64,000 nucleotides of DNA from an uncultured Dehalococcoidaceae bacterium (GTDB taxonomy: Bacteria > Chloroflexota > Dehalococcoidia > Dehalococcoidales > RBG-16-60-22): the NCBI GenBank assembly GCA_964342875.1, contig CAYFHI010000001.1, positions 5,384-69,383 on the forward strand, given 5' to 3'. The translations under genes and the position numbers were made by a program. Shown here piece by piece: positions 4,098 to 54,882 of this stretch (positions are counted from its first letter, which is position 1; the number at the start of each line of letters is the position of its first letter). Under the pieces are notes generated by a model, which saw only the letters and a list, made by a program, of their open reading frames with translations, searched no databases and was not told the origin of the DNA.

Positions 4098-6050
4098 ATG
4101 GTACCTAAAGTATTAGAGGATATCAACATAGGTATTGGGTCGGTTGAGAAAGCTGTAGCTAAGGCCGAGCAGCTGAGTAGGGAGGCGAAAGAGGCGGTAG
4201 AGGCTTCTACGAAGGTTTCTCAGCAGGCGGTAAGTCGGGCGGAGCAGATAAGTACAGAGGCGGGAGTGTCGGCGGCAGAATCGGCAAAAGCCGCTCGAGA
4301 AGCGGTAAAGCGTGCTGAGAAACTGAGAAAAGATGCAAAAGAAGCTGTTGAAGCGTCAATAAAAATCTTTGAAGATGCCATACGCCGGGCAGAAGAAGCC
4401 GCCAGAGCGCCGAGAGATTCAGCTGAGGCGACTAAGAAAATCTTTGAGGAAGCGATTAGCCGGGCGGAGAAAATCAGCAAGGAAGCGATGGGAACGGCTG
4501 AGGCGACATTAGTATTGTCTCAGGAAGTATTAACCAGAGTTGATGAAGTAAGTCGGGGAGCCAAAGAAAAATCAGAATACGCCAGAAAAGTAGCTCAGGA
4601 AGCGGTTGATCAGGTTAATGAAGTAAGTCGGATAGCCCGGGAAGCTGCTGAAGTATCGATTAAATCTTCCAGAGAAGTAGCGAGTAAGGCTGAAAAATTA
4701 ACCAAGTTTGCCAGGGAAGACTCTGAAGCGGCTACCAGAGTGGCTAAAGATGCAGCAAATCGGGTGGAAAAGGCGAGTAAAATCACCAAGGATGATGCGG
4801 AAGCATCAGCCAGGGCAGCTGAAGAAGCGACGATACGGGCTGAAGTAACGAGTAAAGTTTCCAAGGAAATTGCTGAAGCAGCGCAGAGAAAATCTGAGGA
4901 GGCGATGAGCCAGACTGAGGAGATAAGTAGGAGAGCCGAAGAGGCGTCAGAGTCATCACAGAAGATGTCACGGGAAGCGCTCAGCAGGATAGAGGAGATA
5001 AGTCGTGAGTCAAGGGAATCAGCTGAAGAATCACAGAAAATATCGCGCGAGGCAATAGAAAGAGCGGATCGGATTAACAGGGAGACGGTAGAAGCAGCAG
5101 AACAGTCTGCAGAACTCTTCCGTGAGGCGATTGATCGGACCGAACAAGTAAGTATTGAAGCAAAGCAAGCGGCGGTAGAATCGGTAGAGGTCTCTCAGGA
5201 AACCATAAGGCGGGCGGAAGAAATAAACAGGGAGGCTAAAGTAACCACCGAAGCGTCAGCAAAAGCGGCTCGTGATGCCGCTGAGACTTCCGTAAAGGCA
5301 TCCCAGGAAGCGATAAGCCGTGCCGAAGAATTAAGTCGGGAGACAAAGGAAAACGCGGAAGTATTCGCAAAAGCAGTAGAAGAAGCGACGGAGACATCAG
5401 CTCGGGCTGCCCGGGAAGCGGCGGAAACATCAAAGAAAGGCTTTGAGGAAGCTATAAGGCGGGCGGAAGAAGTAAACAAAGAAGCTAAAGAAATGGCGAA
5501 AGCAGCAGAAAAAGCGGCTGAAAAAGTATCTGCAGGTTTGATGACAGCTGCGAAAGAATCGGCGAAGGTTACAGTGAAAACCGCCAGAGAAGCTGTCGAA
5601 ACGTCCACAAGGATTGCCAGGGAAGCGGCAGCGCTATCAATACACGCTGTTGAAGAATTAATTAGCCGTGCTGAGACATCCGGTAAAAATGCCAAAGAAA
5701 CGGTAGAAGCGTCCTTAAAAGCCTTTGAAAAAGCGATTATTGAGAATGAGGCGGAGGGTAGAAAATCGGTTGTCACTGATGGTGTCGGTGAGGAATCAGA
5801 AGAAGCTATTGAAAAAGCAATGCCGGGTGATGAAGAAAAAGATGGCGAGGTTGACGCTGATGAGGCTGCGTTAAGGGTATTAGAAGACGCAATAAAACGG
5901 GCTGAAGATACCAAGTCTAAGAAGAAAAAAGGAACCAGAGGAAAGATTGAGACACGACTGGAATCGTTAGCCAAAATGTATGAATCTCAGAAGGGTAAAG
6001 ATGCTAAAGGAAAGTCAGGTGCGGAAGATAATTTGGGGATTGACGCGTAG
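4098..6050 (+). CDS. 650-aa Ala/Glu/Lys/Ser-rich coiled-coil repeat protein, function unknown
   Basis: Long ORF with a GGGGAAGGGTG RBS region. No TM segment or signal peptide seen. Recurring A[VI]xRAE anchor; Lys-rich, charged C-terminus. The antisense ORFs within it are low-complexity mirror artefacts. Confidence 0.85.
   Translation: MVPKVLEDINIGIGSVEKAVAKAEQLSREAKEAVEASTKVSQQAVSRAEQISTEAGVSAAESAKAAREAVKRAEKLRKDAKEAVEASIKIFEDAIRRAEEAARAPRDSAEATKKIFEEAISRAEKISKEAMGTAEATLVLSQEVLTRVDEVSRGAKEKSEYARKVAQEAVDQVNEVSRIAREAAEVSIKSSREVASKAEKLTKFAREDSEAATRVAKDAANRVEKASKITKDDAEASARAAEEATIRAEVTSKVSKEIAEAAQRKSEEAMSQTEEISRRAEEASESSQKMSREALSRIEEISRESRESAEESQKISREAIERADRINRETVEAAEQSAELFREAIDRTEQVSIEAKQAAVESVEVSQETIRRAEEINREAKVTTEASAKAARDAAETSVKASQEAISRAEELSRETKENAEVFAKAVEEATETSARAAREAAETSKKGFEEAIRRAEEVNKEAKEMAKAAEKAAEKVSAGLMTAAKESAKVTVKTAREAVETSTRIAREAAALSIHAVEELISRAETSGKNAKETVEASLKAFEKAIIENEAEGRKSVVTDGVGEESEEAIEKAMPGDEEKDGEVDADEAALRVLEDAIKRAEDTKSKKKKGTRGKIETRLESLAKMYESQKGKDAKGKSGAEDNLGIDA
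4152..5810 (+). repeat. Coding periodic repeat with a 25-residue (75-nt) unit and later 11-residue insertions
   Basis: Anchor hexapeptides start at residues 19, 44, 69, 94, 119, 144, 169, 194, 219, 244, 269, 294, 319, 344 and 369 (15 units at exactly 25 aa). Later anchors are at 405 (+36), 452 (+47), 521 (+69) and 546 (+25). Confidence 0.85.
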
Positions 6051-6328: not shown

Positions 6329-6910
6329 GTGGCTAATTCAAAGCGGAAGTTCAAAAAAGTCTCTGATAAAGCGGAAGAGCAGGTAGCTCCATCACTCGAA
6401 GTTCAGGAAGAAGTTCAGGAAGAAGTTCAGGAAGAAGCTCAAGGATATGGTTTAGAAGGTATCTCAGAACGGGTTGAGGAGACTGTTGTGGAAGAATCGG
6501 AAAAAGTAGGTAACCCGCTTGATGAAATGATGGGTCATGCCGAAAGGGCATACGCGGCATATATGGAGGCGGAACGGCAGGTAGCTAGGGCTTACAGGGA
6601 GAATGAGTTGCAGGTAGCCAAGTCTCATAAGAGAGCTAACAATCAAATTCAGAAAGAATATGATGAGACGACCACACAGGCCTTGAAGACGCGCGAAGAA
6701 GCTTTAACTCGGGCAACGGACGCTCGTGAAAAAGCCTGGCAGGAGGCGGAAGCGATTTTTAGCCAGGCTAAAGAGCAGGCTGATAATGAACTTGGGGCGG
6801 TAATGGCAGAAGCGGTAAGGGTAAAGCAGGAGAACTTGGAGAAAGCTTGGAAAGTACGTGACGATACTATTGACCAGGCTTGGCATATTTATTCAAAAAT
6901 GACAAAATAA
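6329..6910 (+). CDS. 193-aa acidic coiled-coil protein, function unknown
   Basis: GTG start 7 nt after AAGGAGG. N-terminal (EEVQ)3 acidic repeat. The C-terminal two thirds is predicted helical with repeated KAW/QAW motifs. Confidence 0.7.
   Translation: MANSKRKFKKVSDKAEEQVAPSLEVQEEVQEEVQEEAQGYGLEGISERVEETVVEESEKVGNPLDEMMGHAERAYAAYMEAERQVARAYRENELQVAKSHKRANNQIQKEYDETTTQALKTREEALTRATDAREKAWQEAEAIFSQAKEQADNELGAVMAEAVRVKQENLEKAWKVRDDTIDQAWHIYSKMTK
6398..6443 (+). repeat. 12-bp tandem repeat (gttcaggaagaa x3 plus a degenerate fourth copy) encoding EEVQEEVQEEVQEEAQ
   Basis: Three perfect contiguous copies at 6401-6436, read directly from the sequence. Confidence 0.85.
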
Positions 6911-7007: not shown

Positions 7008-8183
7008 TTATAACAGAGAGGGGATATCCTTTATCGTGAGGTCAATCCCTCGTTGCTGGTCTACCAAACCATTCTGGCGTTTCTTAAGTGCAGATATTAA
7101 CGAGATTGCTTTAGTGAAGTATCCCCTGATTTTTTCGAGATCACTAAACTCGGATAATACCACGGTAACATCCAGCATACCCCTATCTCTGGGGTAATCA
7201 CCGCTCCTGATAATAGCCTCCGGAGCCATACCCTTTAAATAAGTTCCGAGCGCTTTTATCAGGTCCATACTAATTTCCCTGGCAGGTGCCGATACGAGAT
7301 ACATGGCTCTTTTGGCATCTATGGGGTTACACTTGACTGATAATCCGCTGATAGCTTCATCCATTGCTTGGGTTCCCTTCTGGGTTTCCGTAGCCTTATC
7401 CCTGAAGTCTCGCGCTCCATCGAAGAGCGATTTGAGGAGTGACGTATGAGACTTGCCATAACCTAAAGTTGTCCAGCCGGAGAGCGACTGTATTATATCG
7501 CCGGCATCCAGCATCTTCGCCCCAATGTATTTCGGTTTTTTCTCTTCTCCGGCACAGAGAAGGCTAAAAAACGGCTCCACTATCATCGCGTTGATCTTGG
7601 TCATATTGCTGCTGATCGATGCGTCTTTAGAGAGATATCTTTGGTTATCAACCAGAAATATCGCATCTGCTACTAGATAGCTGGATTTAAGGCATGTGGC
7701 TACGTTATATATGGTTCTATCTTCAGTGGATTCTTCGTGCTCAAATGGAAGGATGATAAGGTTATATACCGGTTTATCTACAAACCGTTCCTTAATTTGC
7801 TGCGTCATAATTGGGATAGAACCGGAGCCAGTACCGCCAGATGCGCCAGCAACGAGCAAGAAGGCATCCGCTTCAGAGAAACGTTTGGTAGTTCTTACCG
7901 TATCAATTATTTTATCGGCATCCTCCTTGGCTATTTCAGCACCCAGCTCATTTATTTTCCCCACGCCGTGGCCACCGGTCTTCCGTCCGCCAATGAGAAT
8001 ACGGTGCTGGTAATCAGACTTTATCGTCGACAGTCCGCTTAAATCAGCTACATCGGTATTAGCAGCATAAGCGCCAACGATGATATCCAGACCACGAGCG
8101 CCGCGTGCTTTCCGGTTCAGCCTTGCAAACTCATCCGTAACCCTACCGCCACATTGTCCAAAACCTAAAACTACTAATTTCAT
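7008..8183 (-). CDS. Tubulin/FtsZ-superfamily GTPase, CetZ/tubulin-like, paralog 2
   Basis: 391 aa, gap-free colinear with paralog 1 (71 of the first 100 residues identical by eye). GFGQCGGR, GASGGTGSGS, MLDAGD, LVDNQRY and SGDYPRD motifs. Identical tail KDIPSLL. Confidence 0.8.
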   Translation of the reverse strand: MKLVVLGFGQCGGRVTDEFARLNRKARGARGLDIIVGAYAANTDVADLSGLSTIKSDYQHRILIGGRKTGGHGVGKINELGAEIAKEDADKIIDTVRTTKRFSEADAFLLVAGASGGTGSGSIPIMTQQIKERFVDKPVYNLIILPFEHEESTEDRTIYNVATCLKSSYLVADAIFLVDNQRYLSKDASISSNMTKINAMIVEPFFSLLCAGEEKKPKYIGAKMLDAGDIIQSLSGWTTLGYGKSHTSLLKSLFDGARDFRDKATETQKGTQAMDEAISGLSVKCNPIDAKRAMYLVSAPAREISMDLIKALGTYLKGMAPEAIIRSGDYPRDRGMLDVTVVLSEFSDLEKIRGYFTKAISLISALKKRQNGLVDQQRGIDLTIKDIPSLL

Positions 8184-8211
8184 AAATAATTACCTAACGT
8201 GCGATTGAACT

Positions 8212-8241
8212 ATTGTAATCATCTTGACGTACAAAAGTCAA
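8212..8241 (-). promoter_or_regulatory. Predicted sigma70-type promoter of tubulin-like paralog 2
   Basis: On the minus strand: TTGACT, 18 nt, TACAAT, about 30 nt upstream of the ATG. Confidence 0.4.
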
Positions 8242-8592
8242 TCTATCCCCTGTTTTTAAGAGGATTCAGGCGTAAGTTCTCTCAAATGGTTGAGTTGTTA
8301 AACGTGATTTATTACATGTTTTCTTAAAAAATACAGGATAGATAAAAACAGGTTAGTAATATTACGTTGGTTCCTTTTTTCAATATCATGTACTATCTCT
8401 TATTATAGCCCACTATCCATAATGGAATTAATCCAGTCAATCAGGTTATTTTTCTCTGCTACTCCTAGTTTTTAATTGTGGCCCCATTTTGTCATTCTGA
8501 GGAAAACCTCCCGAACCGGCTAAAAATATTGATTCTAGTTTTAGTTTTTATTAAGGTTATCTGATATATGCTTATCTTTCATAGTCAGACCG

Positions 8593-9618
8593 TTATCGTC
8601 TGAGTGCCCGTCGGCCGTACTTAAAGCCTTGTTTGCGCCGTTGCAGCATGTCCAGAAATGCCTCAATGCGTGTTTTTTTATGGGTGGTCAGAGAATAATC
8701 GTCATTACCTTCTAATATAAGAAAGGGTAAGTTAATGGCGTTACGAAATATAATGTCGCCGATTCCCCGGTGACAGAATGCCTGTACATAATGAATGACC
8801 CCATCGACCCGTCTTTTGTCGAGCTCCGCGGTGATGTCTTTTAGTCTTTCATGTATTGAGTATGGATAAGTATAGCTGGAATATTGATCTGCTAGAGAGT
8901 TTCCCGCTTCAGGCATCGCAAACTGTCGCTGAATCTCGTTGAATACTATTCTGGCTCCATTGGTCTCAAGATAGGGGAAAAAGTCTCTGGCGTAAACCGG
9001 AGGTACGCCGATATATGCCATCCTGAGATAATCTGCGGGATATGATTGACGCCGCTGGCATTCGGTTAATAGCGTCTTTAATTGAGAGTAATATTCGTGG
9101 TGGTCCCCGTTGAAATCAGACGAGGAAACCAGCCAGTAGTGGTTCTCGCCGCCGCTGACCAGACTATCTTTCCAGGTCAACTCGTCTAGTTCCCGTGCTA
9201 GGTTGCGGCAGGGTTGAAGTTCATCTCTGACTCGGCTTGCCGCTTCTATGCTTGTACCCAGCGTTGCGGCTAATTCCTCTAAGGTCCGCTGCATGATCTC
9301 TGTATTGGGAAATTCAGGATAGGCGAAAGGTATAGCCTTGAGGTTCTTCAGTCTGAGGACTTCCATCAGTATCTTTGTGTTAGAGCAGTCACCAGTAGTA
9401 ACACAGAGGACGGTATCGATTCCATATTCCATACATACCCCATAGATTCCCTTAATCCAGCTGCAGCAGTTAATGGGGAAACCGGCTTTTTCTGCAATGT
9501 GCACCAACCTTTCCGGGTTAGAGTCGTTTATGAAAATATTGTTCAGGTCAACCGGCTGATAGCCGGCGGCAATGAGAACTTCTATGGGAACTGTAGTGGT
9601 GATGCCGATTTTCTTCAT
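8593..9618 (-). CDS. 2-hydroxyacyl-CoA dehydratase (HgdB/D-component) family protein
   Basis: 341 aa. The N-terminal ITTTVPIEVLIAAGYQPV and C-terminal HYVQAFCHRG patterns are typical of the family. No partner subunit or activator is adjacent. Confidence 0.55.
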   Translation of the reverse strand: MKKIGITTTVPIEVLIAAGYQPVDLNNIFINDSNPERLVHIAEKAGFPINCCSWIKGIYGVCMEYGIDTVLCVTTGDCSNTKILMEVLRLKNLKAIPFAYPEFPNTEIMQRTLEELAATLGTSIEAASRVRDELQPCRNLARELDELTWKDSLVSGGENHYWLVSSSDFNGDHHEYYSQLKTLLTECQRRQSYPADYLRMAYIGVPPVYARDFFPYLETNGARIVFNEIQRQFAMPEAGNSLADQYSSYTYPYSIHERLKDITAELDKRRVDGVIHYVQAFCHRGIGDIIFRNAINLPFLILEGNDDYSLTTHKKTRIEAFLDMLQRRKQGFKYGRRALRR

Positions 9619-20637: not shown

Positions 20638-20949
20638 TTATTTGTTAATAATTAGATTCAACCGGTTTATTGTACCGGTGCCTTTCAGGGTAGAAACCAT
20701 CCCTGTAATGGTCTCAGAGATAATTTTATTGGCGAAAGGAGTCAGTGAAATCACCGCACCGTTAAGATTTAATTTTACCTGTCTCTCTTCATCGATGGAA
20801 AGCTCCAGGTTTTCAATTTTACCTGTTCCCCTCAAACTGCCCAGAATTCCATTGACAATATGCTCTAAAAAACCCTGAGTAAAGTATTTCAGTTTAACGG
20901 GGATATCGTTAACCGTAAGTTCTACCTGTTCTAGCATCGTACTGTCCAC
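20638..20949 (-). CDS. Hypothetical 103-aa protein with internal duplication
   Basis: Two similar halves: GILGSLRGTGKIENLELSI and GMVSTLKGTGTINRLNLII. Co-oriented immediately downstream of the tusA-like gene. Confidence 0.55.
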   Translation of the reverse strand: MDSTMLEQVELTVNDIPVKLKYFTQGFLEHIVNGILGSLRGTGKIENLELSIDEERQVKLNLNGAVISLTPFANKIISETITGMVSTLKGTGTINRLNLIINK

Positions 20950-20963
20950 TTAATACTCCTCTT

Positions 20964-21197
20964 TTAATCGTGCGTCTTCTTTACGTAGACCTTGATTTCC
21001 TCGCCTTCATCTTCTATTCCCAGGAACCCATACCCGGTGGCGTCACACCATGCCGGCATATCCTGCTTTATTCCCTGGTCATCACCTACTACTTCAAGGA
21101 CTTCTCCAGTCTTTAACTGCTTAATCTTCTCGTTAGCTTTGACAATCGGCATTGGGCAATACAGACCCATGCAGTCTAGGGATTGATCTGCCCTCAT
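20964..21197 (-). CDS. tusA: TusA/SirA-family sulfurtransferase
   Basis: 77 aa. Conserved CPxP motif (LYCPMPIV). Confidence 0.85.
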   Translation of the reverse strand: MRADQSLDCMGLYCPMPIVKANEKIKQLKTGEVLEVVGDDQGIKQDMPAWCDATGYGFLGIEDEGEEIKVYVKKTHD

Positions 21198-21231: not shown

Positions 21232-21720
21232 TTAGATAAAAAGGGTAACGCTGGACTTGCGGGCACTATTCAGGAAATAGGCAGCACCAGCCATACTTGT
21301 AATTTCACTGCGGAATGCGTCTTGCTCTGCGGGTAAGCCCATTACCCCGCACGTAGTCGTGCAGGCAATAATTTCTACTCCCATATCATGAGCCATGGTG
21401 ATATATTCGCTGACGGACGGCATATTTGTATCCTTCATCAGTCTCTTCATCATCCATGTGCCCAGCCCAAACATGTTGAATCGGGAAAGTTTCAGTCTCT
21501 CGCTGCCACCTCGGTTTATCGAGTTCAGCATCTTCCTCAACAATCCTTTACTCTTTATACCGTCTTTGTTCTTTTTAACAATATTCAGTCCCCAGAAGGT
21601 AAAGAACATGCTTACCTGCATTCCCATGCTGGCACCGGTGACCGCCAGCATAAAAGCAGCCAGAGCCCTTTCCAGATCTCCACTTAAGACCGCTATCGTA
21701 AGTTTTTCCTTATCAGCCAT
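21232..21720 (-). CDS. DsrE/DsrF-like family protein
   Basis: 162 aa. Layout is like the DsrE/F-related COG2210-type proteins that pair with TusA. Conserved Cys in IIACTTTCGVMG. Confidence 0.65.
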   Translation of the reverse strand: MADKEKLTIAVLSGDLERALAAFMLAVTGASMGMQVSMFFTFWGLNIVKKNKDGIKSKGLLRKMLNSINRGGSERLKLSRFNMFGLGTWMMKRLMKDTNMPSVSEYITMAHDMGVEIIACTTTCGVMGLPAEQDAFRSEITSMAGAAYFLNSARKSSVTLFI

Positions 21721-21744: not shown

Positions 21745-21933
21745 CTACCCTTTTATTTGAGTCCCGCAATGCGAGCAAATCTTCTTATCTCGGGGTGTAG
21801 GCGCACGGCAACTGGGACAGTAGAATATGGTTACTTCGCAAGCACCGCAAGTTGGAATCGGATCATTGGCTATTTCCTCGTCACAATAAGGACAAAATCG
21901 TACTTCTTTCTCAATTCTTTGTTTATCTTCCAT
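21745..21933 (-). CDS. Small zinc-ribbon protein (62 aa)
   Basis: Four CxxC pairs: CPYC, CGAC, CPSC and CSHC. I trimmed the start to Met27 of the track ORF because the upstream part overlaps iscU. Confidence 0.5.
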   Translation of the reverse strand: MEDKQRIEKEVRFCPYCDEEIANDPIPTCGACEVTIFYCPSCRAPTPRDKKICSHCGTQIKG

Positions 21934-22330
21934 CCTGCCTGTCCTCCTTATACCTTTCCCTTTTTTTATTCCGGTAATCCTCAATAGCTTTATGCAGAGC
22001 TTGGGCGCCAAGGTTAGAGCAGTGAAACTTGTTCTTGGGTAATCCCTCTAGTTTCTCCGCTACCAGTTGAGGAGTAATTTTCATTCCTTCATCCAATGTT
22101 TTGCCCATTGCCATCTCGCTGACCATGCTGGATACAGCAATCGCTGCCCCACAGCCGAACGTCTTGAATTTTATATCTTCGAGATGGTCATCTTCAACTT
22201 TGATATAAAATGTCATCATATCGCCACATACCGGATTGCCTTCTTCACCGATGCCATCCGGGTTCTCAATTTCTCCTACGTTACGGGGATTCATAAAATG
22301 GTCCATTACTGTTTCGCTATAAATCGGCAT
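21923..22330 (-). CDS. iscU: Fe-S cluster assembly scaffold IscU/NifU N-terminal type
   Basis: Three scaffold Cys motifs: NPVCGDMM, FGCGAAIA and HCSNLG. Start set at Met24 of the track ORF (MPIYSETVMDHF...). Confidence 0.9.
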   Translation of the reverse strand: MPIYSETVMDHFMNPRNVGEIENPDGIGEEGNPVCGDMMTFYIKVEDDHLEDIKFKTFGCGAAIAVSSMVSEMAMGKTLDEGMKITPQLVAEKLEGLPKNKFHCSNLGAQALHKAIEDYRNKKRERYKEDRQDGR

Positions 22331-23519
22331 ATTTACTGCCTCCTTTGCCCGTTTTACTGAATTTTGCATAAAGCGGTGACATCTGCCGTAGCCTGTCAAC
22401 GATGGATGGCATCACCTCAAGAATATAGTCGATGTCCTCAAGTGTATTATCGATACCAAGTGTAAAAAGGATGGAACCCTGAGCAATCTCATGGGGCAAT
22501 CCCATAGCTATAAGCACGTGAGAAGCTTTGAGTGCCCTCGAAGTGCAGGCAGAACCGCTGGAAACGGCAATACCTTTGCTATTTAACATCATGAGCATAG
22601 ATTCACCTTCGATAAATTCAACGCAGCAGCTGACATGTCCGGGAAGGCGATTCCGGGGGTGCCCCGTAACTATTACCCGTTTAATCTTCTCTGGTAACTT
22701 CTTTAATAAGTGGTTACGGAGTTGTGTCAGTTGTTGCGTTCGTGTGACCATGTTTAGTCTGGCCAACTCCGCCGCTTTGCCAAGACCGACGATCGCCGGA
22801 ATATTCTCTGTTCCGGCACGCCGCCCTCCTTCCTGAATACCGCCGTCCAGAAGCGGCATAATGCGCATACCCTTTCGCAGGTAGAGAGCGCTACCTCCCT
22901 TGGGACCGTAGAACTGGTCGCTCGCCAGGCTTAAAGAATCAACTCCCAATTCCTTGACGTTTATCGGTATGTTCCCAACGGTAGCCACCGCATCCGTGTG
23001 GATGGGTATATTATGCTCTCTGGCGATGCTGGCAATCTCCGCTAAAGGTTCAATAGTACCTACTTCTCCGTTAGCGTGCATCACAGAAATTAATCCCGTG
23101 TCTTTTCTGATGCTGCGCTTAACCTCATCGGGATCTACCATGCCGTACTTATCCGCCGGAACCAAAGTCAGCTTAAAGCCCCATTTTCCCAAGGTTCTTG
23201 CCGAGTGGAGCACGGAAAAATGTTCGATGGCCGAAATTACCACATGTTTGCCTTTGGCTTGCTGAGCCAGTGCTATTCCCTTGATGGCAAAGTTATTACT
23301 TTCTGTGCCGCTGCCAGTGAAGATTATCTCTTCGGGACTGGCTCCTATCAGTGAAGCTACCTGTTCTCGTGCTACCTCAATCGCTTCCCTAGAAGCGTCT
23401 CCCCAGTCGTGAAGAGAGGACGGATTGCCAAATGTCTCTCCAAAGTAGGGCATCATCGCATTCCTCACCTCTGAGAGAAGGGGCGTCGCCGAGGCATTAT
23501 CTAAATATACTCTCCTCAT
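22317..23519 (-). CDS. IscS/NifS-family (class V aminotransferase fold) protein lacking the PLP-binding lysine
   Basis: 400 aa, colinear with IscS. The persulfide loop SSGSACTS is retained, but SGHK is ASDQ (D201, Q202) and HxDAxQ is HTDAVAT. Confidence 0.85.
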   Translation of the reverse strand: MRRVYLDNASATPLLSEVRNAMMPYFGETFGNPSSLHDWGDASREAIEVAREQVASLIGASPEEIIFTGSGTESNNFAIKGIALAQQAKGKHVVISAIEHFSVLHSARTLGKWGFKLTLVPADKYGMVDPDEVKRSIRKDTGLISVMHANGEVGTIEPLAEIASIAREHNIPIHTDAVATVGNIPINVKELGVDSLSLASDQFYGPKGGSALYLRKGMRIMPLLDGGIQEGGRRAGTENIPAIVGLGKAAELARLNMVTRTQQLTQLRNHLLKKLPEKIKRVIVTGHPRNRLPGHVSCCVEFIEGESMLMMLNSKGIAVSSGSACTSRALKASHVLIAMGLPHEIAQGSILFTLGIDNTLEDIDYILEVMPSIVDRLRQMSPLYAKFSKTGKGGSKYADL

Positions 23520-23574: not shown

Positions 23575-24102
23575 TTACTCCCTTCCTGTAGTTCCTGCCA
23601 GTATCCTCTTTCGAATTGTTATGAAAAGAGGCTGCTCAATGGCGGTATGTTCCAGCAGTAATTGTCGTGTATGGCTTATATGGGCCCTCATATCATGAGC
23701 GCTGGCTTCCCATCTATGACGTGCCAGCCTGTCGCTAATAAGTTCGGTCACTTGCTTCTTCACATGGGTAAGGCGATCTCTAAAAACTCCATGCTGGAGA
23801 AGCAGAGCTTTCAAGTCGGAAACCAGTTTTTTATCACCGTATCTTTCAAAGACATGTAAAAGGACCGTTTCTTCACGGTTGAAGTGTGCCAGAAGACCTT
23901 GGTTGATTGTATCCAGCGACTCCAGAAACTTTTGTAATCCTTTACCCAAGTCCAATCTGCCAGGCATAAATGCGTCCTTGGCTGCATCTATCCCAGAAAT
24001 CGCAGCAGCGTCACCAAACATCCCATCAAGTTCTTTAAACCTTTTAAAGGCGATCTGGTGTTCTTGAATAATCTGGTCAATCAAGTCCAGGGCTTCCTTC
24101 AT
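23575..24102 (-). CDS. Hemerythrin-like (HHE cation-binding) domain protein
   Basis: 175 aa, helical, with spaced H/E residues (IQEH, HFNREE, LLQH). Weak by-eye call. Confidence 0.45.
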   Translation of the reverse strand: MKEALDLIDQIIQEHQIAFKRFKELDGMFGDAAAISGIDAAKDAFMPGRLDLGKGLQKFLESLDTINQGLLAHFNREETVLLHVFERYGDKKLVSDLKALLLQHGVFRDRLTHVKKQVTELISDRLARHRWEASAHDMRAHISHTRQLLLEHTAIEQPLFITIRKRILAGTTGRE

Positions 24103-24631
24103 TGGTTCCCTCCTACCAAATCAACTGTAAAGCTGCCGGGTTTTGATTGATTGTATCTGAGCAAGAAGATTTTGCATATTCCAGTATGATAACTAGAGAT
24201 AATAAGCCGATTATGGATATAACTGCTGGCTTGAATCATCTTCAATAATAATTGCATTCGCAGTATAGCTTTCCGCCGCTTCCAAAAGAGTCTTCTCATT
24301 GACTGATGACGGGTCTAATATAATCGCTTTGTTCTCATTATCAAAAGCAAAGATCGTCAACGCAATCACCAGCAATTACCCAGGCTAATGCAGAAATCTC
24401 TTTCTACCCGTACTTTCATTATCTTTCGCTGCAACTCTTTTTCTCCTTTGATGTTGCTAGGTTCATTTTAACATACACCACCAACTTTTGCTTTCTACCT
24501 GTCCCCAACTTCATGTCTAACACATATTTTTCTAAGACCTATCATTCTTATCTAAGTATATGCTGCTATCTACGTTAAGGCATATGACATAAGTCATATT
24601 TGATTACTTAGATAAATGGCATTAAAAACTT

Positions 24632-24686
24632 TTGATAAAGTGTATACTGTATGCTACTATGGGGTATATTAGATAACTTTATACCC
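24632..24686 (+). promoter_or_regulatory. Predicted csoR promoter with candidate CsoR operator
   Basis: TTGATA, 17 nt, TACTAT (24632-24660), followed directly by the inverted repeat GGGTATA-N11-TATACCC (24662-24686). This lies inside the 5-prime extension of the track ORF, which supports the downstream start. Confidence 0.4.
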
Positions 24687-24713
24687 TATCGTTTACACAA
24701 GGAGGATTGCAGT

Positions 24714-28736: not shown

Positions 28737-29651
28737 TCATTTTCCCAGTCGCTGTAAATAGCGGTGGGCTTGGAGCGCCGCCTTGGCGCCCTCCCCGGCG
28801 GCAATAATAATCTGCTTCTCAGGTACGTCGGTGACATCTCCGGCAGCATAAAGACCGAGAGCCGTGGTCTCACAAAGACAGCTGACGGGTACCTCTTTCT
28901 GTCTGGTTAATTCAAGGAGTCCGGCTACCGCACTCGAATTGGGTACTAACCCTATCTCGATAAAAACGCCGGTAACATCCAGATTTTTCTTCTCGCCGTT
29001 CTTTACGCTTTTTATGACGATTCCTTTCACCAGGCCATCACCCTCTATTTTCTCGGTATCATATTCAATATAAGTGCTCAGGTTTTTCACACCCGATAGC
29101 TGCTTAGTTAGAACGGGGTCGGCAGTTATCGGGGTCAGCGAAACTAGGTCGACATGCTCGGTAATTTTTATCATGTCCAGAGCCGCCTCGACCGCCGAGT
29201 TGCCGCCGCCTATCACCGCCACTCTCTGCCCGGAGAAAACAGGCCCGTCACAGATGGCGCAATAAGTTACACCCATCCCGGTTAACTCGGCTTCGCCGGG
29301 CACATTTAACTTTCTGGGTTTCTTTCCGGTAGCGAAAACCACTGCTTGTGCCTGGTACTTTTCACCGGAATCAGTGGTGGCTTCGAATCCCCCTTTTATC
29401 GCTGTCAGTTTGGAAACCTTGGGACCAATCTTCTGGTCTACGGGAAACTGGCTCACCTGCGCCTGAAATTTACTTATCAGATCCGGACCTTCGATAAATT
29501 GATAACCAAGATAATTCTCAACGCCCATAGTACTGTTTATCTGGCCACCGATATCACCACTGATGAGAAGGGCCTTTAGCTGTTTGCGTGCAGCATAGAC
29601 AGTGGCGCAAAGTCCCGCGGGACCGCCGCCGATTATTATCAATTCATACAT
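28737..29651 (-). CDS. trxB: Thioredoxin-disulfide reductase
   Basis: GGGPAG FAD motif, redox-active CAICDG and GGGNSAVEAA NADPH motif. Start at MYELIIIGGG (ATG at 29651) with a GGAGG RBS. Confidence 0.9.
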   Translation of the reverse strand: MYELIIIGGGPAGLCATVYAARKQLKALLISGDIGGQINSTMGVENYLGYQFIEGPDLISKFQAQVSQFPVDQKIGPKVSKLTAIKGGFEATTDSGEKYQAQAVVFATGKKPRKLNVPGEAELTGMGVTYCAICDGPVFSGQRVAVIGGGNSAVEAALDMIKITEHVDLVSLTPITADPVLTKQLSGVKNLSTYIEYDTEKIEGDGLVKGIVIKSVKNGEKKNLDVTGVFIEIGLVPNSSAVAGLLELTRQKEVPVSCLCETTALGLYAAGDVTDVPEKQIIIAAGEGAKAALQAHRYLQRLGK

Positions 29652-29701
29652 CTCCCGACCTCCAAACACGGAATTACAACAGGAATTAATTAGCGATAAT
29701 C

Positions 29702-29938
29702 CTATGTCAGCAATCCATCTAATTTTGACTGAACGAAACCTACCATAAGTTCATCACCAACGGTTATTACCGGCACGCCCATCTGTTTGGACTTCCCTAT
29801 CATCTCCTCTAGAGCGACCTTGTCTTCAGCCACATTATGGTCCACGTAAGAGATACCCTTTTGCGAAAGATACTCTTTCGCTCTCTTACAGTAGGGTCAA
29901 GTAGGGGTCGAATAGATAACTATCTTTTTATCAGACAT
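29702..29938 (-). CDS. Glutaredoxin/NrdH-like protein with in-frame TGA at the active site (putative selenoprotein, UPYC)
   Basis: Not in the ORF track. Minus-strand translation is MSDKKIVIYSTPT[TGA]PYCKRAKEYLSQKGISYVDHNVAEDKVALEEMIGKSKQMGVPVITVGDELMVGFVQSKLDGLLT*. The TGA is codon 14 (29897-29899), exactly where the first Cys of CPYC sits. Confidence 0.6.
29846..29889 (-). promoter_or_regulatory. SECIS-like bipartite stem-loop downstream of the Grx TGA
   Basis: Seven nt after UGA: outer stem GUAAGAGA/UCUCUUAC (8 bp), then inner stem GCGAAAGA/UCUUUCGC (8 bp) with a GUA loop and a 9-nt 3-prime bulge. All arms are perfect complements in the sequence. Confidence 0.5.
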
Positions 29939-30454
29939 TTTCTTACCTCTCTCCCGTCATCGATTTGTAATGTAATGCTCGAGACCGTATAGTAGCTCAA
30001 TGGTATAATCTTGTCGGTAAATTTGTCAATTCCGTTGGTTGGACAGTACCGTATCCACGGTTGTATTTAATTCGCTCGTTGTTAGTATGATATACTGGTT
30101 AGAAACGCAGGTATGTAACCTTATAGAGGAGAAAACGGATATCGCTTTGACGATGATAGCTAGCAAATTAAACTTCAAGGCACACTGTAAAACCACGGCG
30201 ATGGCAATAATGCCTCACAGTGGCTTTAACAAAGCGCTGGATATGGTTCTCAGTCTTGATATTCCCTTCAGGCCGCAGCTATCCTATGTGTGATTTAAAT
30301 CATATGCACCCTCGGTTTTATTAATATAGAATCACTATGGCAAAACTATTGGCAGAATAATAATTTAGATTTATTTTCCATTACACCTTAAGAACGGCGA
30401 AATTGTTTCAGGATTCGGAAAGAATGGAATTCATCTGACAGAAGGAGATGGTAA

Positions 30455-30985
30455 ATGGTAACGGAACAGGAAAAAACTGCCGAAGTACTTAAAATGGCTA
30501 TCCAGATGGAAACCGATGGCAAAGAATTCTATTTAAAAGCCAGTAAAAAAAGCTCTAATGACATGGGAAAAACTTTGTTGCAAACACTGGCTAAGGAGGA
30601 AGATTTACATCGGATAAAGTTCCAGGAAATATACGATGCCATCAGTAAAGAAATGGCTTGGCCGACGGTTGATTTGCATCTCGATGGCGGCAAAAACCTG
30701 GAAACTGTATTAGCCACGGCAACTAGGGAAATAAGCTCTGATAACAAGGGGGTTTCAACTGAACTTGAGGCAGTTCAGACGGGGATGGCGATGGAGAATA
30801 AGACCTATGATTTGTATTTTGCCAGAGGTGAAAAAGCCAGCGGTAGTGCCGAGAAAGATTTTTATAAATCATTATCTGTAGAGGAAAGAATACACTACCA
30901 GCTTCTACAGGATTATTATGAATACCTGAAAGACCCGGCGGGGTGGTTTATTAGGAAAGAGCATCCGTCACTGGATGGCGGTTAA
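30455..30985 (+). CDS. Rubrerythrin/ferritin-like diiron-domain protein (no rubredoxin domain)
   Basis: 176 aa. Paired helices with E...ExxH patterns (EEDLHRIKF, EERIHYQLL). Confidence 0.65.
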   Translation: MVTEQEKTAEVLKMAIQMETDGKEFYLKASKKSSNDMGKTLLQTLAKEEDLHRIKFQEIYDAISKEMAWPTVDLHLDGGKNLETVLATATREISSDNKGVSTELEAVQTGMAMENKTYDLYFARGEKASGSAEKDFYKSLSVEERIHYQLLQDYYEYLKDPAGWFIRKEHPSLDGG

Positions 30986-31102
30986 GTAAACAATATAGTG
31001 TACCTCTCTCACGATCAGATGGTAACTACTTTCCTTGTTAATAACTGTGACACCGGAGAGTTTCGAACAGGCAAGGGAGTGGATTTAAAAGGAGATATTT
31101 GA

Positions 31103-32287
31103 ATGAGACCCAGAGAAATAAGGCCTGGGATATATCAGGTTGGAGCGATTGACTGGGACAGGCGGTTATTTGATGCCCTGGTACCTCTCCCTGACGGTAC
31201 CAGCTATAACTCATATTTAGTTAAAGGTAGCCGAAAGACAGCACTTATTGACACAGTAGACTCTTTGATGACAGACGTACTGGTTAACCACCTGGATAAG
31301 CTTGGAATTAAAAGGATAGATTACATTGTCGCTCATCACGCCGAACAGGATCACTCTGGTTCTATTCCCCGTATTATTGAAAAATATCCTCAAGTAAAAA
31401 TCGTTACCTCCCCCAAATGTAAAGGAATGCTTATTGACCTGTTGACTGTGCCGGAAGAGAAATTTGTCACCGTGGATGACCGGGAGACTCTATCACTGGG
31501 GGATAAAACCCTTGAGTTTATCCGCACACCATGGGTTCATTGGCCGGATACTATGGTTACCTATCTAAAAGAAGACAAAATATTATTCACCTGTGATTTC
31601 TTCGGTTCCCATATTGCCGGTAGTGACTTGTATGTGACTGATGAAGGAAAGGTAACTGAAGCTGCCAAGAGATATTATGCCGAAATTATGATGCCTTTCC
31701 GTACCGTTATCCAGAATAACCTGGAAAAAATCAAGGACTATGCCGTTGACTTAATTGCTCCTAGCCATGGCCCGGTTTATGATAAACCGAAATTCATTCT
31801 GAAAGCCTACCGTAGTTGGGTTACTGATGAACCAAAAAACATCGTAGTTTTGCCTTATATTACGATGCATGGTAGCACGCGCCGGATGGTCGAATACTTC
31901 GTCGATGCTTTAATCCAGAGAGGCGTGACGGTGAAACAGTTCGACCTGATAGCAACCGATATGGGTAGACTGGCGATAGCGCTTGTAGATGCTGCCACGC
32001 TAGTCATTGGGACGCCTACCGTTCTCGCCGGTCCGCATCCAAATGCTATTCGCGCCGTTTTCCTGGCAAATGCGCTGAGACCCAATCTAAAATTTGCGTC
32101 GATTATTGGTTCCTATGGCTGGGGGGGGCGTACTGTTGAACAACTGGTCGGCATTATCCCCAATCTGAAGGTAGAACTGTTGGAGCCCGTGCTCTCGAAG
32201 GGTCATCCCAGGGAGGAGATTTTTAAGGCTCTGGATAACCTTGCTGAAACAATTGCCCGAAAACACAAGGAGTATAATTTCAATTAA
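31103..32287 (+). CDS. fprA: FprA-type flavodiiron protein (MBL-like plus flavodoxin-like domains)
   Basis: 394 aa. Diiron motif HHAEQDHSG and a C-terminal flavodoxin-like half. Confidence 0.87.
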   Translation: MRPREIRPGIYQVGAIDWDRRLFDALVPLPDGTSYNSYLVKGSRKTALIDTVDSLMTDVLVNHLDKLGIKRIDYIVAHHAEQDHSGSIPRIIEKYPQVKIVTSPKCKGMLIDLLTVPEEKFVTVDDRETLSLGDKTLEFIRTPWVHWPDTMVTYLKEDKILFTCDFFGSHIAGSDLYVTDEGKVTEAAKRYYAEIMMPFRTVIQNNLEKIKDYAVDLIAPSHGPVYDKPKFILKAYRSWVTDEPKNIVVLPYITMHGSTRRMVEYFVDALIQRGVTVKQFDLIATDMGRLAIALVDAATLVIGTPTVLAGPHPNAIRAVFLANALRPNLKFASIIGSYGWGGRTVEQLVGIIPNLKVELLEPVLSKGHPREEIFKALDNLAETIARKHKEYNFN

Positions 32288-32289
32288 TA

Positions 32290-32850
32290 ATGGTAAGGAG
32301 AGGTCAATACAAAAGGAAAATCATTGGGCTGTTAAATGCTGACCTTCAGGATGAACATAGTGCCATTATCCAGTATCTAGATCAAGCCTACGTAATGCGT
32401 GGAGGCGAAATGTCTTGTGAGGTTGAAGCTATCTACCGGGATGAAATGCGCCATCTGGACTGGCTGGCGAAAGCAATTGTCGAACTCTGCGGCATTCTCA
32501 GCCTGGATAGAAGTAAAATGATGATGAGCGGTAAACGGGTGACCGAGTGGATGAGCAATGACGTGAGCTTGGGAGAGAGTGCCATCATCCAGTACAGGGA
32601 ACAAATAAATCTTATCGATAACCCTAGGATAAAACGACTGCTGAAACGTATCCTTTCGGATGAGGAGGCGCATCGGGATAAATTTACCCAAGATGTGGGG
32701 AACGGATATTATCGGCATGGCGAAACTATTCGGAAACTGAATTGGGCCATAGAGCATGAGTACACCGTCATTCTTCAGTATTTATTCCATTCTTACATGA
32801 CAACCAGCCCGGAAACGAAAAACCAGTTTGAAAACCAGGCGGTTAATTAA
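32290..32850 (+). CDS. Ferritin/bacterioferritin-like protein, apparently the truncated front of a tandem two-domain gene
   Basis: Domain 1 is complete (LNADLQDEHSAIIQYL...RDEMRHLDWLAKAIVELCG...SDEEAHRDKF). Domain 2 starts (LNWAIEHEYTVILQYL) but ends at a TAA that aligns with the Glu of the ExxH motif. Confidence 0.6.
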   Translation: MVRRGQYKRKIIGLLNADLQDEHSAIIQYLDQAYVMRGGEMSCEVEAIYRDEMRHLDWLAKAIVELCGILSLDRSKMMMSGKRVTEWMSNDVSLGESAIIQYREQINLIDNPRIKRLLKRILSDEEAHRDKFTQDVGNGYYRHGETIRKLNWAIEHEYTVILQYLFHSYMTTSPETKNQFENQAVN

Positions 32851-33134
32851 ATGCAGTACCTTGGCTGGCTTGTCGGGAAGCTGGTTGATATGGGCGGCGT
32901 ACCAAATTTGATCGTTCTAGGGAAACCGCCAAAATGCCGCGCGCCAATATCGATATAGAAGAGAAGATGGCTACTAAGTATGGACGCCATAGCATGGAAA
33001 TTGAAGACCCCGACCTGAAAAAACTCCTTCAGCGCATCAGGGATGAGGATAGCGGTCGTATTGACCCGAAAATCAATGAAGACTACCACCATGAGGTGTT
33101 TAATGACCTGCTTCAAGAGGAGGAAGGAAGATAA
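32851..33134 (+). pseudogene. Detached, frameshifted remainder of the second ferritin-like domain
   Basis: Immediately after the TAA: MQYLGWLVGKLVDMGG (compare MRHLDWLAKAIVELCG). A stop and frame change then lead to ...DPDLKKLLQRIRDEDSG... (compare NPRIKRLLKRILSDEEAH). Confidence 0.45.
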
Positions 33135-33182
33135 AAGGTACAAATGTTCTTTTTGTAAATCGGAAGAGGAGGTATTTTTAAC

Positions 33183-33662
33183 ATGCCTGATTCCTTTACC
33201 GGTAATGACCTGATTAATATAGCCATCGGTATCGAAAGAAATGGAATCGCCTTTTACGATATCATGTCCAAGTCGACAGAAAATGCGGAAACCAGCGACA
33301 TTTTTCGCCATCTCGCTCAAATGGAGGGGCAGCATATTCAGATTTTTCAGGGTATGCTTAATGAATCCAATAGATACCTCGAAATAGAAACCAAGGAACA
33401 TATATCTTATCTACAGACGTTAGCCGATAACGCTATTTTCACCGATGAAATGGTCACCAGCGAATTGGCTACCCAGGCGGATAGTGACGTTAAAGCCTTG
33501 GAACTGGCAATCGTTGCCGAAAAGGACTCACTGTTATTTTATTACCAGATGAGGGACATGGTTCCACGGCAGGCATACCCTGAGGTAAATAAGATAATAG
33601 ATGAGGAAAAATCACACTTGAGGCTGCTTTCTGAATTGAAAAAGCGGCTAGCGGCTATTTAA
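33183..33662 (+). CDS. Rubrerythrin/ferritin-like domain protein
   Basis: 159 aa. IAIGIERNGIAFY...LAQMEGQHIQIF...AIVAEKDSLLFY...EEKSHLRLL four-helix pattern. Confidence 0.62.
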   Translation: MPDSFTGNDLINIAIGIERNGIAFYDIMSKSTENAETSDIFRHLAQMEGQHIQIFQGMLNESNRYLEIETKEHISYLQTLADNAIFTDEMVTSELATQADSDVKALELAIVAEKDSLLFYYQMRDMVPRQAYPEVNKIIDEEKSHLRLLSELKKRLAAI

Positions 33663-54694: not shown

Positions 54695-54835
54695 CCAATT
54701 GAATAGGTAACTGGGGTGCCCGAACGTAAGTGAGGGCCTAACTGGAAAGCAAGCCGGTGAGAGACCGGCGCGGCCGCGCCACTGTGATTGATGGGGATAC
54801 CATTAAAAGTCAGAACGCCAGCCCTTTAGTATCCT
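54695..54835 (+). promoter_or_regulatory. Cobalamin (B12) riboswitch aptamer upstream of cbiB
   Basis: Elements appear in the correct order: GGAAAGC..GCCGGTGAGAGACCGGC..GCCGCGCCACTGT core, then the B12-box-like AAAAGTCAGAACGCCAGCC. It sits 120 nt upstream of cbiB. Confidence 0.75.
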
Positions 54836-54882
54836 ACACGCTCCGCGGGGAGGGGTAGGAATTTTTGTTACGCAATTATTCC

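Follow-up and report, generated by a model that had tools for sequence, protein, structure and literature searches.

Gene content of the locus

We analyzed a 64-kb stretch of contig CAYFHI010000001.1 from an uncultured Dehalococcoidaceae bacterium (positions 5,384 to 69,383 of the forward strand). This whole stretch is referred to as the window, and coordinates are those of the window unless a locus handle (L with a number) is given with them. The gene of interest, on the minus strand at 22317..23519, encodes a 400-residue protein of the IscS/NifS type (MisS-like) in which the fold and the cysteine loop are kept and the pocket for pyridoxal phosphate (PLP) and the substrate is lost. It is part of a minus-strand cluster that runs from 24102 to 20638 and encodes, in this order, a hemerythrin-like protein, the IscS-like protein, IscU, a zinc-ribbon protein, a DsrE2-like protein, TusA and a 103-residue open reading frame (ORF). 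A gap of 55 nt separates the hemerythrin-like gene from that for the IscS-like protein, which at its 3' end overlaps iscU (22330..21923) by 14 nt, an overlap already recorded in the first-pass annotation of this DNA. The iscU and zinc-ribbon genes overlap by about 11 nt, and the remaining spacings are 24 nt (zinc ribbon to DsrE2-like), 34 nt (DsrE2-like to TusA) and 14 nt (TusA to the 103-residue ORF). The first six genes are also found, in unchanged order, in L004, a relative with 78% identity.

The IscS-like protein retains the desulfurase fold

The 400-residue protein belongs to the class-V aminotransferase fold. It matched the Pfam family Aminotran_5 (PF00266) at 1e-71 and shares 41% identity with E. 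coli IscS. Its best match among solved structures in HMMER searches was the PDB 9WEP series (5.6e-131), and the second best was IscS2 of Archaeoglobus fulgidus (about 1e-112). The series (9WEP, 9WER, 9WEW, 9WF8, 9WFB, 9WFE and 9WFY) comprises a 406-residue, lysine-containing 'cysteine desulfurase' and six variants that differ in the pocket (for example HTDAVQS/HTDAAQS/HTDAAPS, SIMH/SIGH and FSAHK/FTAHK) and look engineered. An AlphaFold2 model built on a 150-sequence alignment had a predicted local distance difference test (pLDDT) value of 95.4. It superposed on human NFS1 with a template modelling (TM) score of 0.94, on E. coli IscS with 0.92, and on A. fulgidus IscS (4HVK/4EB5) with 0.90-0.91, the last at a root-mean-square deviation of 1.2-1.5 Å and 44-45% sequence identity. 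The loop around Cys325 is the sole internal low-confidence block of the model (pLDDT 67), and for this reason we read it as flexible. Database matches and model thus agree with the first-pass annotation that the protein is an IscS/NifS homologue and that its fold outside the cofactor site is intact. Among the NCBIfam models, the protein scored under the cut-offs for NifS (TIGR03402; 499.9, cut-off 530.75) and IscS (TIGR02006; 380.7, cut-off 643.2), and narrowly passed the subfamily model NF002806 (306.3 versus a cut-off of 304).

Coordinated loss of the cofactor and substrate pocket

A MAFFT alignment of the window protein with E. coli IscS was gap-free from about residue 41 to about residue 220. 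It paired SFSGHK of the E. coli protein with SLASDQ and HVDATQ with HTDAVA, and the SSGSACTS stretch was identical in the two proteins. In place of His205 and the Schiff-base lysine Lys206 of E. coli IscS, the window protein carries Asp201 and Gln202 (22914..22919, minus strand), and the HMMER alignments to solved desulfurases placed the same residues opposite the Schiff-base lysine. The individual codons are those for Ala199 (22923-25), Ser200 (22920-22), Asp201 (22917-19) and Gln202 (22914-16). The first-pass annotation had claimed a replacement of SGHK by ASDQ at 22914-22919 in a gap-free alignment, the loss of the glutamine from the HxDAxQ motif and the retention of the persulfide cysteine loop; each of these claims stands, the position being exact by codon assignment. 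A hidden indel that would restore the lysine was rejected because both the MAFFT and the HMMER alignments are gap-free at the site, and the only lysine nearby is the invariant one of YGPKG, which is present in canonical enzymes too.

Beyond the losses given in the first-pass annotation, three further pocket residues are replaced: Asn155, a PLP contact, by Gly151 (23067..23069, minus strand), Ser203 by Ala199, and the substrate-carboxylate arginine Arg354 by Leu351 (22467..22469, minus strand). Together with the change of the PLP-contact Gln183 to Ala179 (22983..22985, minus strand) and those of His205 and Lys206, six positions of the pocket are affected. The equivalents of His104 (His100), Asp180 (Asp176), Thr243 (Thr237) and Cys328 (Cys325; 22545..22547, minus strand) are retained, the last being the persulfide and cluster-ligand cysteine of the mobile loop (SSGSAC). 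Asn155, Gln183, Ser203, His205, Lys206, Thr243, Asp180, His104 and Arg354 are among the PLP and substrate contacts of IscS.

From a search of 1.8 billion representatives of 50%-identity clusters, the best 150 were taken. Lys206 was kept in 124 of them and replaced by another residue in 25, and almost all of these 25 also carried Ala at position 183 and Leu, Val, Ile or Gln at position 354. Position 183 was Gln in 100% of the canonical representatives and Ala in 68% of the lysine-less ones, and position 354 was Arg in 100% of the canonical representatives and Val, Leu, Ile or Gln in the lysine-less ones; both positions move to small or hydrophobic residues. The loop cysteine was present in every lysine-less representative. 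When 104 canonical representatives were compared with 22 full-length lysine-less ones, 8 of the 61 columns that were at least 90% conserved in the canonical set were lost in the lysine-less set (A11, T12, N155, Q183, K206, T243, S323 and R354), and 34 were conserved there as well, including H104, D180 and C328. Seven of the eight lost columns are PLP or substrate contacts, and the eighth is a column of the cysteine loop. Position 206 itself is highly variable among the lysine-less relatives (Q, R, S, T, G, L, D, N and others), which fits a site that is no longer in use.

By these alignments, the lesion is a coordinated loss of the pocket that goes beyond a single substitution. Having lost the Schiff-base lysine, the substrate arginine and another three or four PLP contacts, the protein would form no persulfide from free cysteine, and PLP-dependent desulfuration is very unlikely. 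The first-pass annotation had deemed canonical desulfuration impossible for want of the lysine, and the additional losses lend support to that prediction.

The lysine-less gene is real and conserved

The identical protein was found on four contigs, and the three of these that were retrieved came from three different samples. This rules out a sequencing error or an assembly artefact as the origin of the lesion, the recurrence extending to at least three samples. Among the 120 closest homologues, which share 75-89% identity, none had the lysine, 110 read AGNQ at the site, and all 120 had the loop cysteine. Where their source was named, it was Dehalococcoidales, Dehalococcoidia, Chloroflexota or 'subsurface metagenome'. 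The ratio of non-synonymous to synonymous substitution (dN/dS) against the orthologue in the metagenome-assembled genome GCA_011192105.1 (L004) was about 0.07, with dS near saturation. These values indicate strong purifying selection on the fold, on the equivalents of His104 and Asp180, and on the mobile Cys325 loop.

Lysine-less IscS-like genes are linked to TusA and DsrE2

The gene neighborhoods of IscS-like proteins were compared across 80 listed loci, no two of them from one contig record, which were obtained with an 8-sequence alignment as query against a GTDB set of one genome per species. Loci were classed by their signature residues, with Q183, H/S205, K206 and R354 defining the canonical class, and six-frame ORFs within 8 kb on either side were searched with jackhmmer profiles seeded with the TusA, DsrE2, IscU, hemerythrin and zinc-ribbon proteins of the window. 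Among the loci listed, 13 lacked Lys206, 65 were fully canonical and 2 were intermediate. At 10 of the 13 lysine-less loci, TusA and/or DsrE2 was encoded on the same strand at a distance of no more than about 1.2 kb. In contrast, neither was found within 8 kb of any of the 65 canonical loci (Fisher p = 2.3e-10, a value that ignores kinship between loci that are not phylogenetically independent), and this count of zero held at E <= 1 with E. coli TusA as the seed. The two classes were similar in their adjacency to IscU (9 of 13 lysine-less versus 50 of 65 canonical loci), and at five lysine-less loci TusA was present and IscU was not (L007, L012, L025, L043 and L054). The first-pass annotation had suggested that the neighboring DsrE-like and TusA genes could provide a route for sulfur, and this comparison gives that suggestion strong support.

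The linkage spans about ten gene orders and about ten phyla in both prokaryotic domains, including Chloroflexota, Nitrospirota, Aminicenantes, Planctomycetota, Latescibacterota, Thermodesulfobacteriota-like bacteria, Syntrophia, Bathyarchaeia and Archaeoglobi. Precomputed Pfam calls gave the order IscS-like-DsrE2-TusA, with no IscU, in bacterium BMS3Abin14; ThiS-MoaE-IscS-like-TusA-Mrp-ThiI on a Latescibacteria-type contig (L012); Rrf2-IscS-like-IscU-TusA-DsrE in a Nitrospirae metagenome-assembled genome; and adjoining TusA and IscS-like genes on an A. fulgidus-like archaeal contig (L094). In A. fulgidus DSM 4304 itself (AE000782.1), a 94-residue DsrE-family gene (L096 7707-7991) ends 10 nt before iscS2 (AF0564), and 6 kb upstream of iscS2 there is a ThiS-ThiF-TusA-DsrE2-TusA-Pyr_redox_2 cluster (L096 45-3241). 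We found no mention of these neighbors of iscS2 in the accessible papers. Nor did we find literature that links lysine-less IscS proteins to TusA or DsrE2 in sources that were mostly non-subscription, so that an earlier mention is possible.

One of the two intermediate loci also carried TusA. In this locus (L022; Nitrospirae SZUA-242, 7929-9164) Lys206 is kept, with Cys at position 183 and Gln at 354, and both IscU and TusA adjoin. A further protein, P0124, has kept Lys206 and has Ala at 183 and Leu at 354. It is possible that L022 and P0124 represent transitional forms.

Partner genes in the cluster

The IscU/NifU-type scaffold protein (135 residues; 21923..22330, minus strand) matched Pfam NifU_N at 3.6e-45 and scored over the cut-off of the NCBIfam model TIGR03419 for NifU_clost (195.2 versus 187.9). 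Its ligands Cys35, Asp37, Cys60, His103 and Cys104 are all present. The double zinc-ribbon protein (62 residues; 21745..21933, minus strand; Pfam DZR 4.8e-9) has four CxxC pairs and thus eight cysteines. Its gene follows that of IscU in relatives too, and three further lineages encode an IscU that carries the zinc ribbon as a C-terminal fusion (L016 1477-1986, L018 7931-9742 and L055 7349-7978), a Rosetta-stone link from which we regard it as an IscU accessory.

The DsrE2-like protein (162 residues; 21232..21720, minus strand) matched Pfam DrsE_2 (PF13686) at 4.6e-43 and PDB entry 3PNX, a 'putative sulfurtransferase DsrE', at 1.4e-18. The NCBIfam DsrE2 model matched it at 2.9e-18 with a score of 66.6, under the cut-off of 210. 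Its active-site cysteine (IIAC) was conserved in all 10 hits that cover the site. TusA (77 residues; 20964..21197, minus strand; Pfam TusA, PF01206, 1.4e-24) has the CPxP motif in the form GLYCPMP, the cysteine of which was kept in 16 of 16 TusA hits. By family and cysteine motif, both proteins are predicted to be persulfide carriers.

The first gene of the cluster encodes a hemerythrin-like protein (175 residues; 23575..24102, minus strand; Pfam Hemerythrin 4.6e-8) with marginal similarity to YtfE/RIC (9e-4) and HxxxE motifs at residues 73 and 152, possibly a di-iron protein that donates iron or senses oxygen. The 103-residue ORF after tusA (20638..20949, minus strand), which had no Pfam hits, is a doubtful member of the cluster. 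The only similarity found for it, to PRK14494 at 2.7e-10 and far under the cut-off, is to the C-terminal 45 or so residues of MobB/FeS fusion proteins, and it was present only in the window and on the identical contig L001.

Flanks of the cluster and other features of the window

The cluster is flanked by csoR-copA and by genes for thioredoxin-reductase-like, rubrerythrin, ODP-type metallo-beta-lactamase-fold and ferritin-like proteins, and the same set was present in L004. These genes form an oxidative-stress and metal island (window 28737-33401; L004 4012-8466), the vicinity of which suggests that the isc-like module may belong to a stress or repair regulon.

On the minus strand at about 24230-24437, between the hemerythrin-like gene and csoR, we noted two adjacent frame fragments, MKVRVERDFCISLGNCW and LLEAAESYTANAIIIEDDSSQQLYP, each ending at a stop. 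Judged by eye, they resemble the N-terminal and the C-terminal part of a small ferredoxin in which most cysteines have been replaced, and they may be remnants of a decayed ferredoxin gene. An intact 58-residue Fer4 gene precedes the TusA-IscS-like pair in L094. An inverted repeat, ACTATGGGGTATA / TATACCCTATCGT, is located at 24656-24692 and overlaps the start of a long csoR ORF (24651); it looks like an operator of the CsoR type. The true CsoR is probably the 97-residue form called in L001, which would autoregulate csoR-copA. CsoR was considered as a regulator of the operon of the IscS-like gene; the operator-like repeat is situated at the start of csoR itself, about 550 nt from the hemerythrin start, and more likely controls csoR-copA. 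A scan for promoters and terminators gave counts that did not exceed those over shuffled sequences.

Elsewhere in the window, two 391-residue proteins with Tubulin and CetZ_C domains are encoded on the minus strand at 2726-3901 and 7008-8183 (Tubulin 2e-33 and 2.9e-29; CetZ_C about 4e-16 and 3e-16, respectively). They flank a 650-residue ORF (4098-6050) and a 193-residue ORF (6329-6910), neither of which had Pfam hits. CetZ has been described as an archaeal tubulin family, and the genome of the window is apparently that of a member of the Dehalococcoidia. A cobalamin riboswitch (54697-54842, plus strand; 32.6 bits versus a gathering score of 31.5) lies upstream of ORFs at 54953-56957.

Comparison with known systems

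The closest described system is the PLP-free IscS2 of A. fulgidus with its IscU (AF0564/AF0565; PDB 4EB5, 4EB7, 4HVK and the D199K variant 4R5F). IscS2 is reported to have no desulfurase activity because aspartate (Asp199) stands in place of the essential lysine, and in the structure of IscS with IscU(D35A) the cysteine of IscS is the fourth ligand of a [2Fe-2S] cluster on IscU (PMC7585200, PMC13066941). IscS1 of Methanosarcina acetivorans is reported to lack the lysine too (PMC7585200). Like the window protein, A. fulgidus IscS2 has kept the cysteine loop, has Ala at 183 and Leu at 354, and is encoded directly upstream of IscU with a DsrE-family gene adjoining. It reads HIDATAS, SSNDIYGPKG and LLLTLG, and thus has the changes Q183A, H205N and R354L in common with the bacterial group. 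Among its 120 closest relatives, 119 have Asp for Lys, position 183 is A, P or S, and position 354 is Leu or Val in all. Unlike the window protein, it is archaeal, has Asp and not Gln at the lysine position and has kept Ser203 and Asn155, and genes for TusA, a zinc ribbon and a hemerythrin are absent from its operon. The precedent that the first-pass annotation had drawn from A. fulgidus was right as to an inactive partner of IscU, but its 'same lesion' applies only loosely, the position being the same and the residue different. Experimental work exists for the archaeal protein alone.

In a bootstrapped neighbor-joining tree calculated without the signature columns, the archaeal clade was recovered as an exact split in 82% of replicates and as a near-exact one in 98%. 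The bacterial lysine-less sequences stood beside it with canonical sequences interspersed, a placement without bootstrap support.

Canonical type I desulfurases (E. coli IscS 1P3W, NFS1 and NifS) have the same fold, a mobile cysteine loop, and IscU and TusA as partners, as in the E. coli complexes IscS-TusA and IscS-IscU (3LVJ, 3LVL). In contrast to them, the window protein lacks the PLP lysine, the substrate arginine and four other pocket residues. TusA, moreover, is the acceptor in E. coli, where tusA is unlinked to iscS, whereas at the locus described here it is tightly linked and proposed to be the donor. In gene content, the locus resembles the two-gene MIS (minimal ISC; MisS/MisU) systems of anaerobes, which combine an IscS-like protein with a single-domain, clostridial-type NifU/IscU and have no HscAB, IscA or Fdx. 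MIS has been described with an active desulfurase (PMC12192291, PMC13066941), however, while the subgroup of the window has lost the desulfurase pocket and carries TusA and DsrE2. M. acetivorans IscS1, reported to be lysine-less like the window protein, is counted among the MIS systems.

The relays of sulfur oxidizers (Rhd-TusA-DsrE2/DsrE3-DsrEFH/sHdr) draw on carriers of the same families, in which the active-site cysteines are the same too, and the hand-over of persulfide between such small carriers is established (PMC3397948, PMC11094781). These relays feed dissimilatory sulfur oxidation, whereas the only visible sink in the window is the pair of IscS-like protein and IscU; rhodanese, Hdr and Dsr genes were not identified in the cluster or the scanned flanks. 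A functional analogy to our proposal is offered by SMS (SmsCB), which builds iron-sulfur (Fe-S) clusters in anaerobes from sulfide (PMC12192291) without cysteine desulfurase chemistry. SMS differs in that its proteins are unrelated (a SufBC-type ATPase scaffold) and that it uses free sulfide instead of a protein persulfide relay.

A proposed persulfide adaptor and its alternatives

Among the loci listed, TusA and DsrE2 accompany genes whose desulfurase chemistry has been lost and none of those in which it is fully canonical, and because of this pattern the carriers most likely supply sulfur. On balance, we favor the view that the window protein is a non-catalytic, PLP-free IscS adaptor, the Cys325 loop of which takes sulfur from a TusA or DsrE2 persulfide and passes it to IscU. 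By analogy with the A. fulgidus structures, the IscS-like protein (IscS*) would assemble with the co-translated IscU into an (IscS*-IscU)2 complex, and the Cys325 loop of IscS* would enter the IscU site to deliver sulfur, to provide the nascent [2Fe-2S] cluster with its fourth ligand, or both. Gene linkage further suggests that sulfide, polysulfide or thiosulfate could provide the sulfane sulfur with which TusA and DsrE2 are loaded, and that the transfer from TusA/DsrE2-SSH to Cys325 and on to IscU would be the reverse of the E. coli step from IscS to TusA. DsrE is persulfurated by sulfide alone in vitro (PMC3397948), which makes a desulfurase-free loading step plausible. Di-iron proteins of the RIC/hemerythrin-like type (YtfE) donate iron to Fe-S assembly (PMC3989283, PMC8117158). 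More speculatively, the hemerythrin-like protein of the cluster might supply or gate iron, and the eight-cysteine zinc ribbon might assist IscU as a handler of electrons or metal. The cluster as a whole would then constitute a cysteine-independent module for Fe-S assembly in an anaerobe.

Several observations weigh against this adaptor proposal. TusA and DsrE2 were absent from the vicinity of 3 of the 13 listed lysine-less loci and of the further lysine-less homologues P0123, P0125 and P0166, and the 80 loci are a sample of the available ones and are phylogenetically related to one another. The context of L012 points to thiolation or molybdenum cofactor (Moco) synthesis rather than to Fe-S assembly. 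The hemerythrin-like gene occurred only in L001-L006, all of them either identical to the window or closely related to it. No rhodanese, SQR or YeeE gene was identified in the cluster or in the scanned flanking ORFs, which are part of the window ORFs. Searches of the 64-kb window with tblastn, using E. coli IscS and SufS, gave no second desulfurase, and there was no second Aminotran_5 gene within it; an intact desulfurase may be encoded elsewhere in the genome and make the module an auxiliary one. Finally, the absence of PLP, the inactivity, the complex formation and the sulfur transfer are all inferred, the direction from TusA to IscS* from the linkage that appears where the desulfurase chemistry is lost.

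The published reading of A. fulgidus IscS2 (PMC7585200) could apply unchanged, the protein being a structural partner that contributes the fourth ligand to IscU, with free environmental or cellular sulfide as the source of sulfur. TusA and DsrE2 would then act in a different pathway, for instance in the thiolation of tRNA or the synthesis of molybdopterin, and have no more than the operon in common with IscS*. SMS shows that clusters are built from sulfide in anaerobes (PMC12192291), and the lysine-less loci devoid of both carriers, listed and further ones alike, are as expected under such a scheme. It leaves unexplained, however, why TusA and DsrE2 accompany the lysine-less class and none of the 65 canonical loci listed, and why TusA stands beside the IscS-like gene at the five loci without IscU, and we regard it as unlikely.

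Sulfur could also flow in the normal direction. The IscS-like protein would then be a hub from which sulfur passes to TusA and on to acceptors of the ThiI, MoaD or MnmA type, as in E. coli, in the service of thio-cofactor synthesis or tRNA thiolation and not of Fe-S assembly, with Cys325 loaded without PLP from sulfide, polysulfide or an IscU-bound cluster. The gene order of L012 agrees with this, as do the ThiS-ThiF-TusA-DsrE2-TusA genes 6 kb upstream of A. fulgidus iscS2 and the described neighborhoods of ThiI+NFACT-R/TusA/IscS-like/IscU (PMC4075521). In addition, the window protein has E/E at the central acidic TusA-contact pair E49/D52 of E. coli IscS (contacts: PMC2854127), so the pair is retained, and R55 is unchanged. 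Yet IscU is the only acceptor visible in the window and at most Chloroflexota-type loci, the operon containing no ThiI, MoaD or MnmA, and a TusA that was a mere acceptor would be expected beside canonical desulfurases, where it was found at 0 of the 65 listed. As a general explanation we consider normal flow quite improbable; in some lineages, the L012 context and the neighborhoods of PMC4075521 favor it.

That the protein is still a cysteine desulfurase, binding PLP non-covalently or through another residue, is a very remote prospect. In its favor, the protein still has the fold, the equivalents of Asp180 and His104, Thr237 and the Gly-Thr phosphate loop, but Lys206, His205, Ser203, Gln183, Asn155 and Arg354 are all replaced, position 206 varies widely across the lysine-less relatives, and the A. 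fulgidus homologue with similar changes is reported to be inactive (PMC7585200). A functionless, decaying pseudogene or an assembly error, which the loss of a residue essential in the parent enzyme family might suggest, can practically be dismissed given the intact full-length frame, the dN/dS of 0.07, the lysine-less state and cysteine loop common to the 120 homologues, the four identical contigs and the confinement of the losses to the pocket.

Implications for Fe-S assembly in anaerobes

PLP-free IscS proteins were already known in archaea, and the window adds to them a large and conserved bacterial group with Gln in place of Asp and a richer operon; the linkage to sulfur carriers as a general feature of PLP-free IscS is possibly new. 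We advance only tentatively the broader proposal that lysine-less IscS proteins form a widespread and functionally distinct class in many anaerobic bacterial phyla and in archaea, A. fulgidus IscS2 included, in which they act as persulfide adaptors and in which IscU obtains its sulfur not from cysteine but from TusA, DsrE2 or both, charged with inorganic sulfur. If true, Fe-S assembly would have a third route, a protein relay, in addition to cysteine desulfuration and the direct use of sulfide.

The locus shows that the solution of an apparently inactive IscS extends beyond the archaea, as it is conserved under purifying selection in abundant uncultured bacteria, among them Dehalococcoidia, Nitrospirota, Aminicenantes and Latescibacterota. 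Databases label all of these lysine-less proteins as 'cysteine desulfurase', and reconstructions that count on cysteine-dependent sulfur mobilization in the organisms concerned are for this reason probably wrong. As to where strict anaerobes without working desulfurases obtain the sulfur for Fe-S assembly, the work on A. fulgidus IscS2 went no further than 'probably sulfide', and the exclusive linkage of TusA and DsrE2 to the lysine-less class makes these carriers concrete candidates for the donor.

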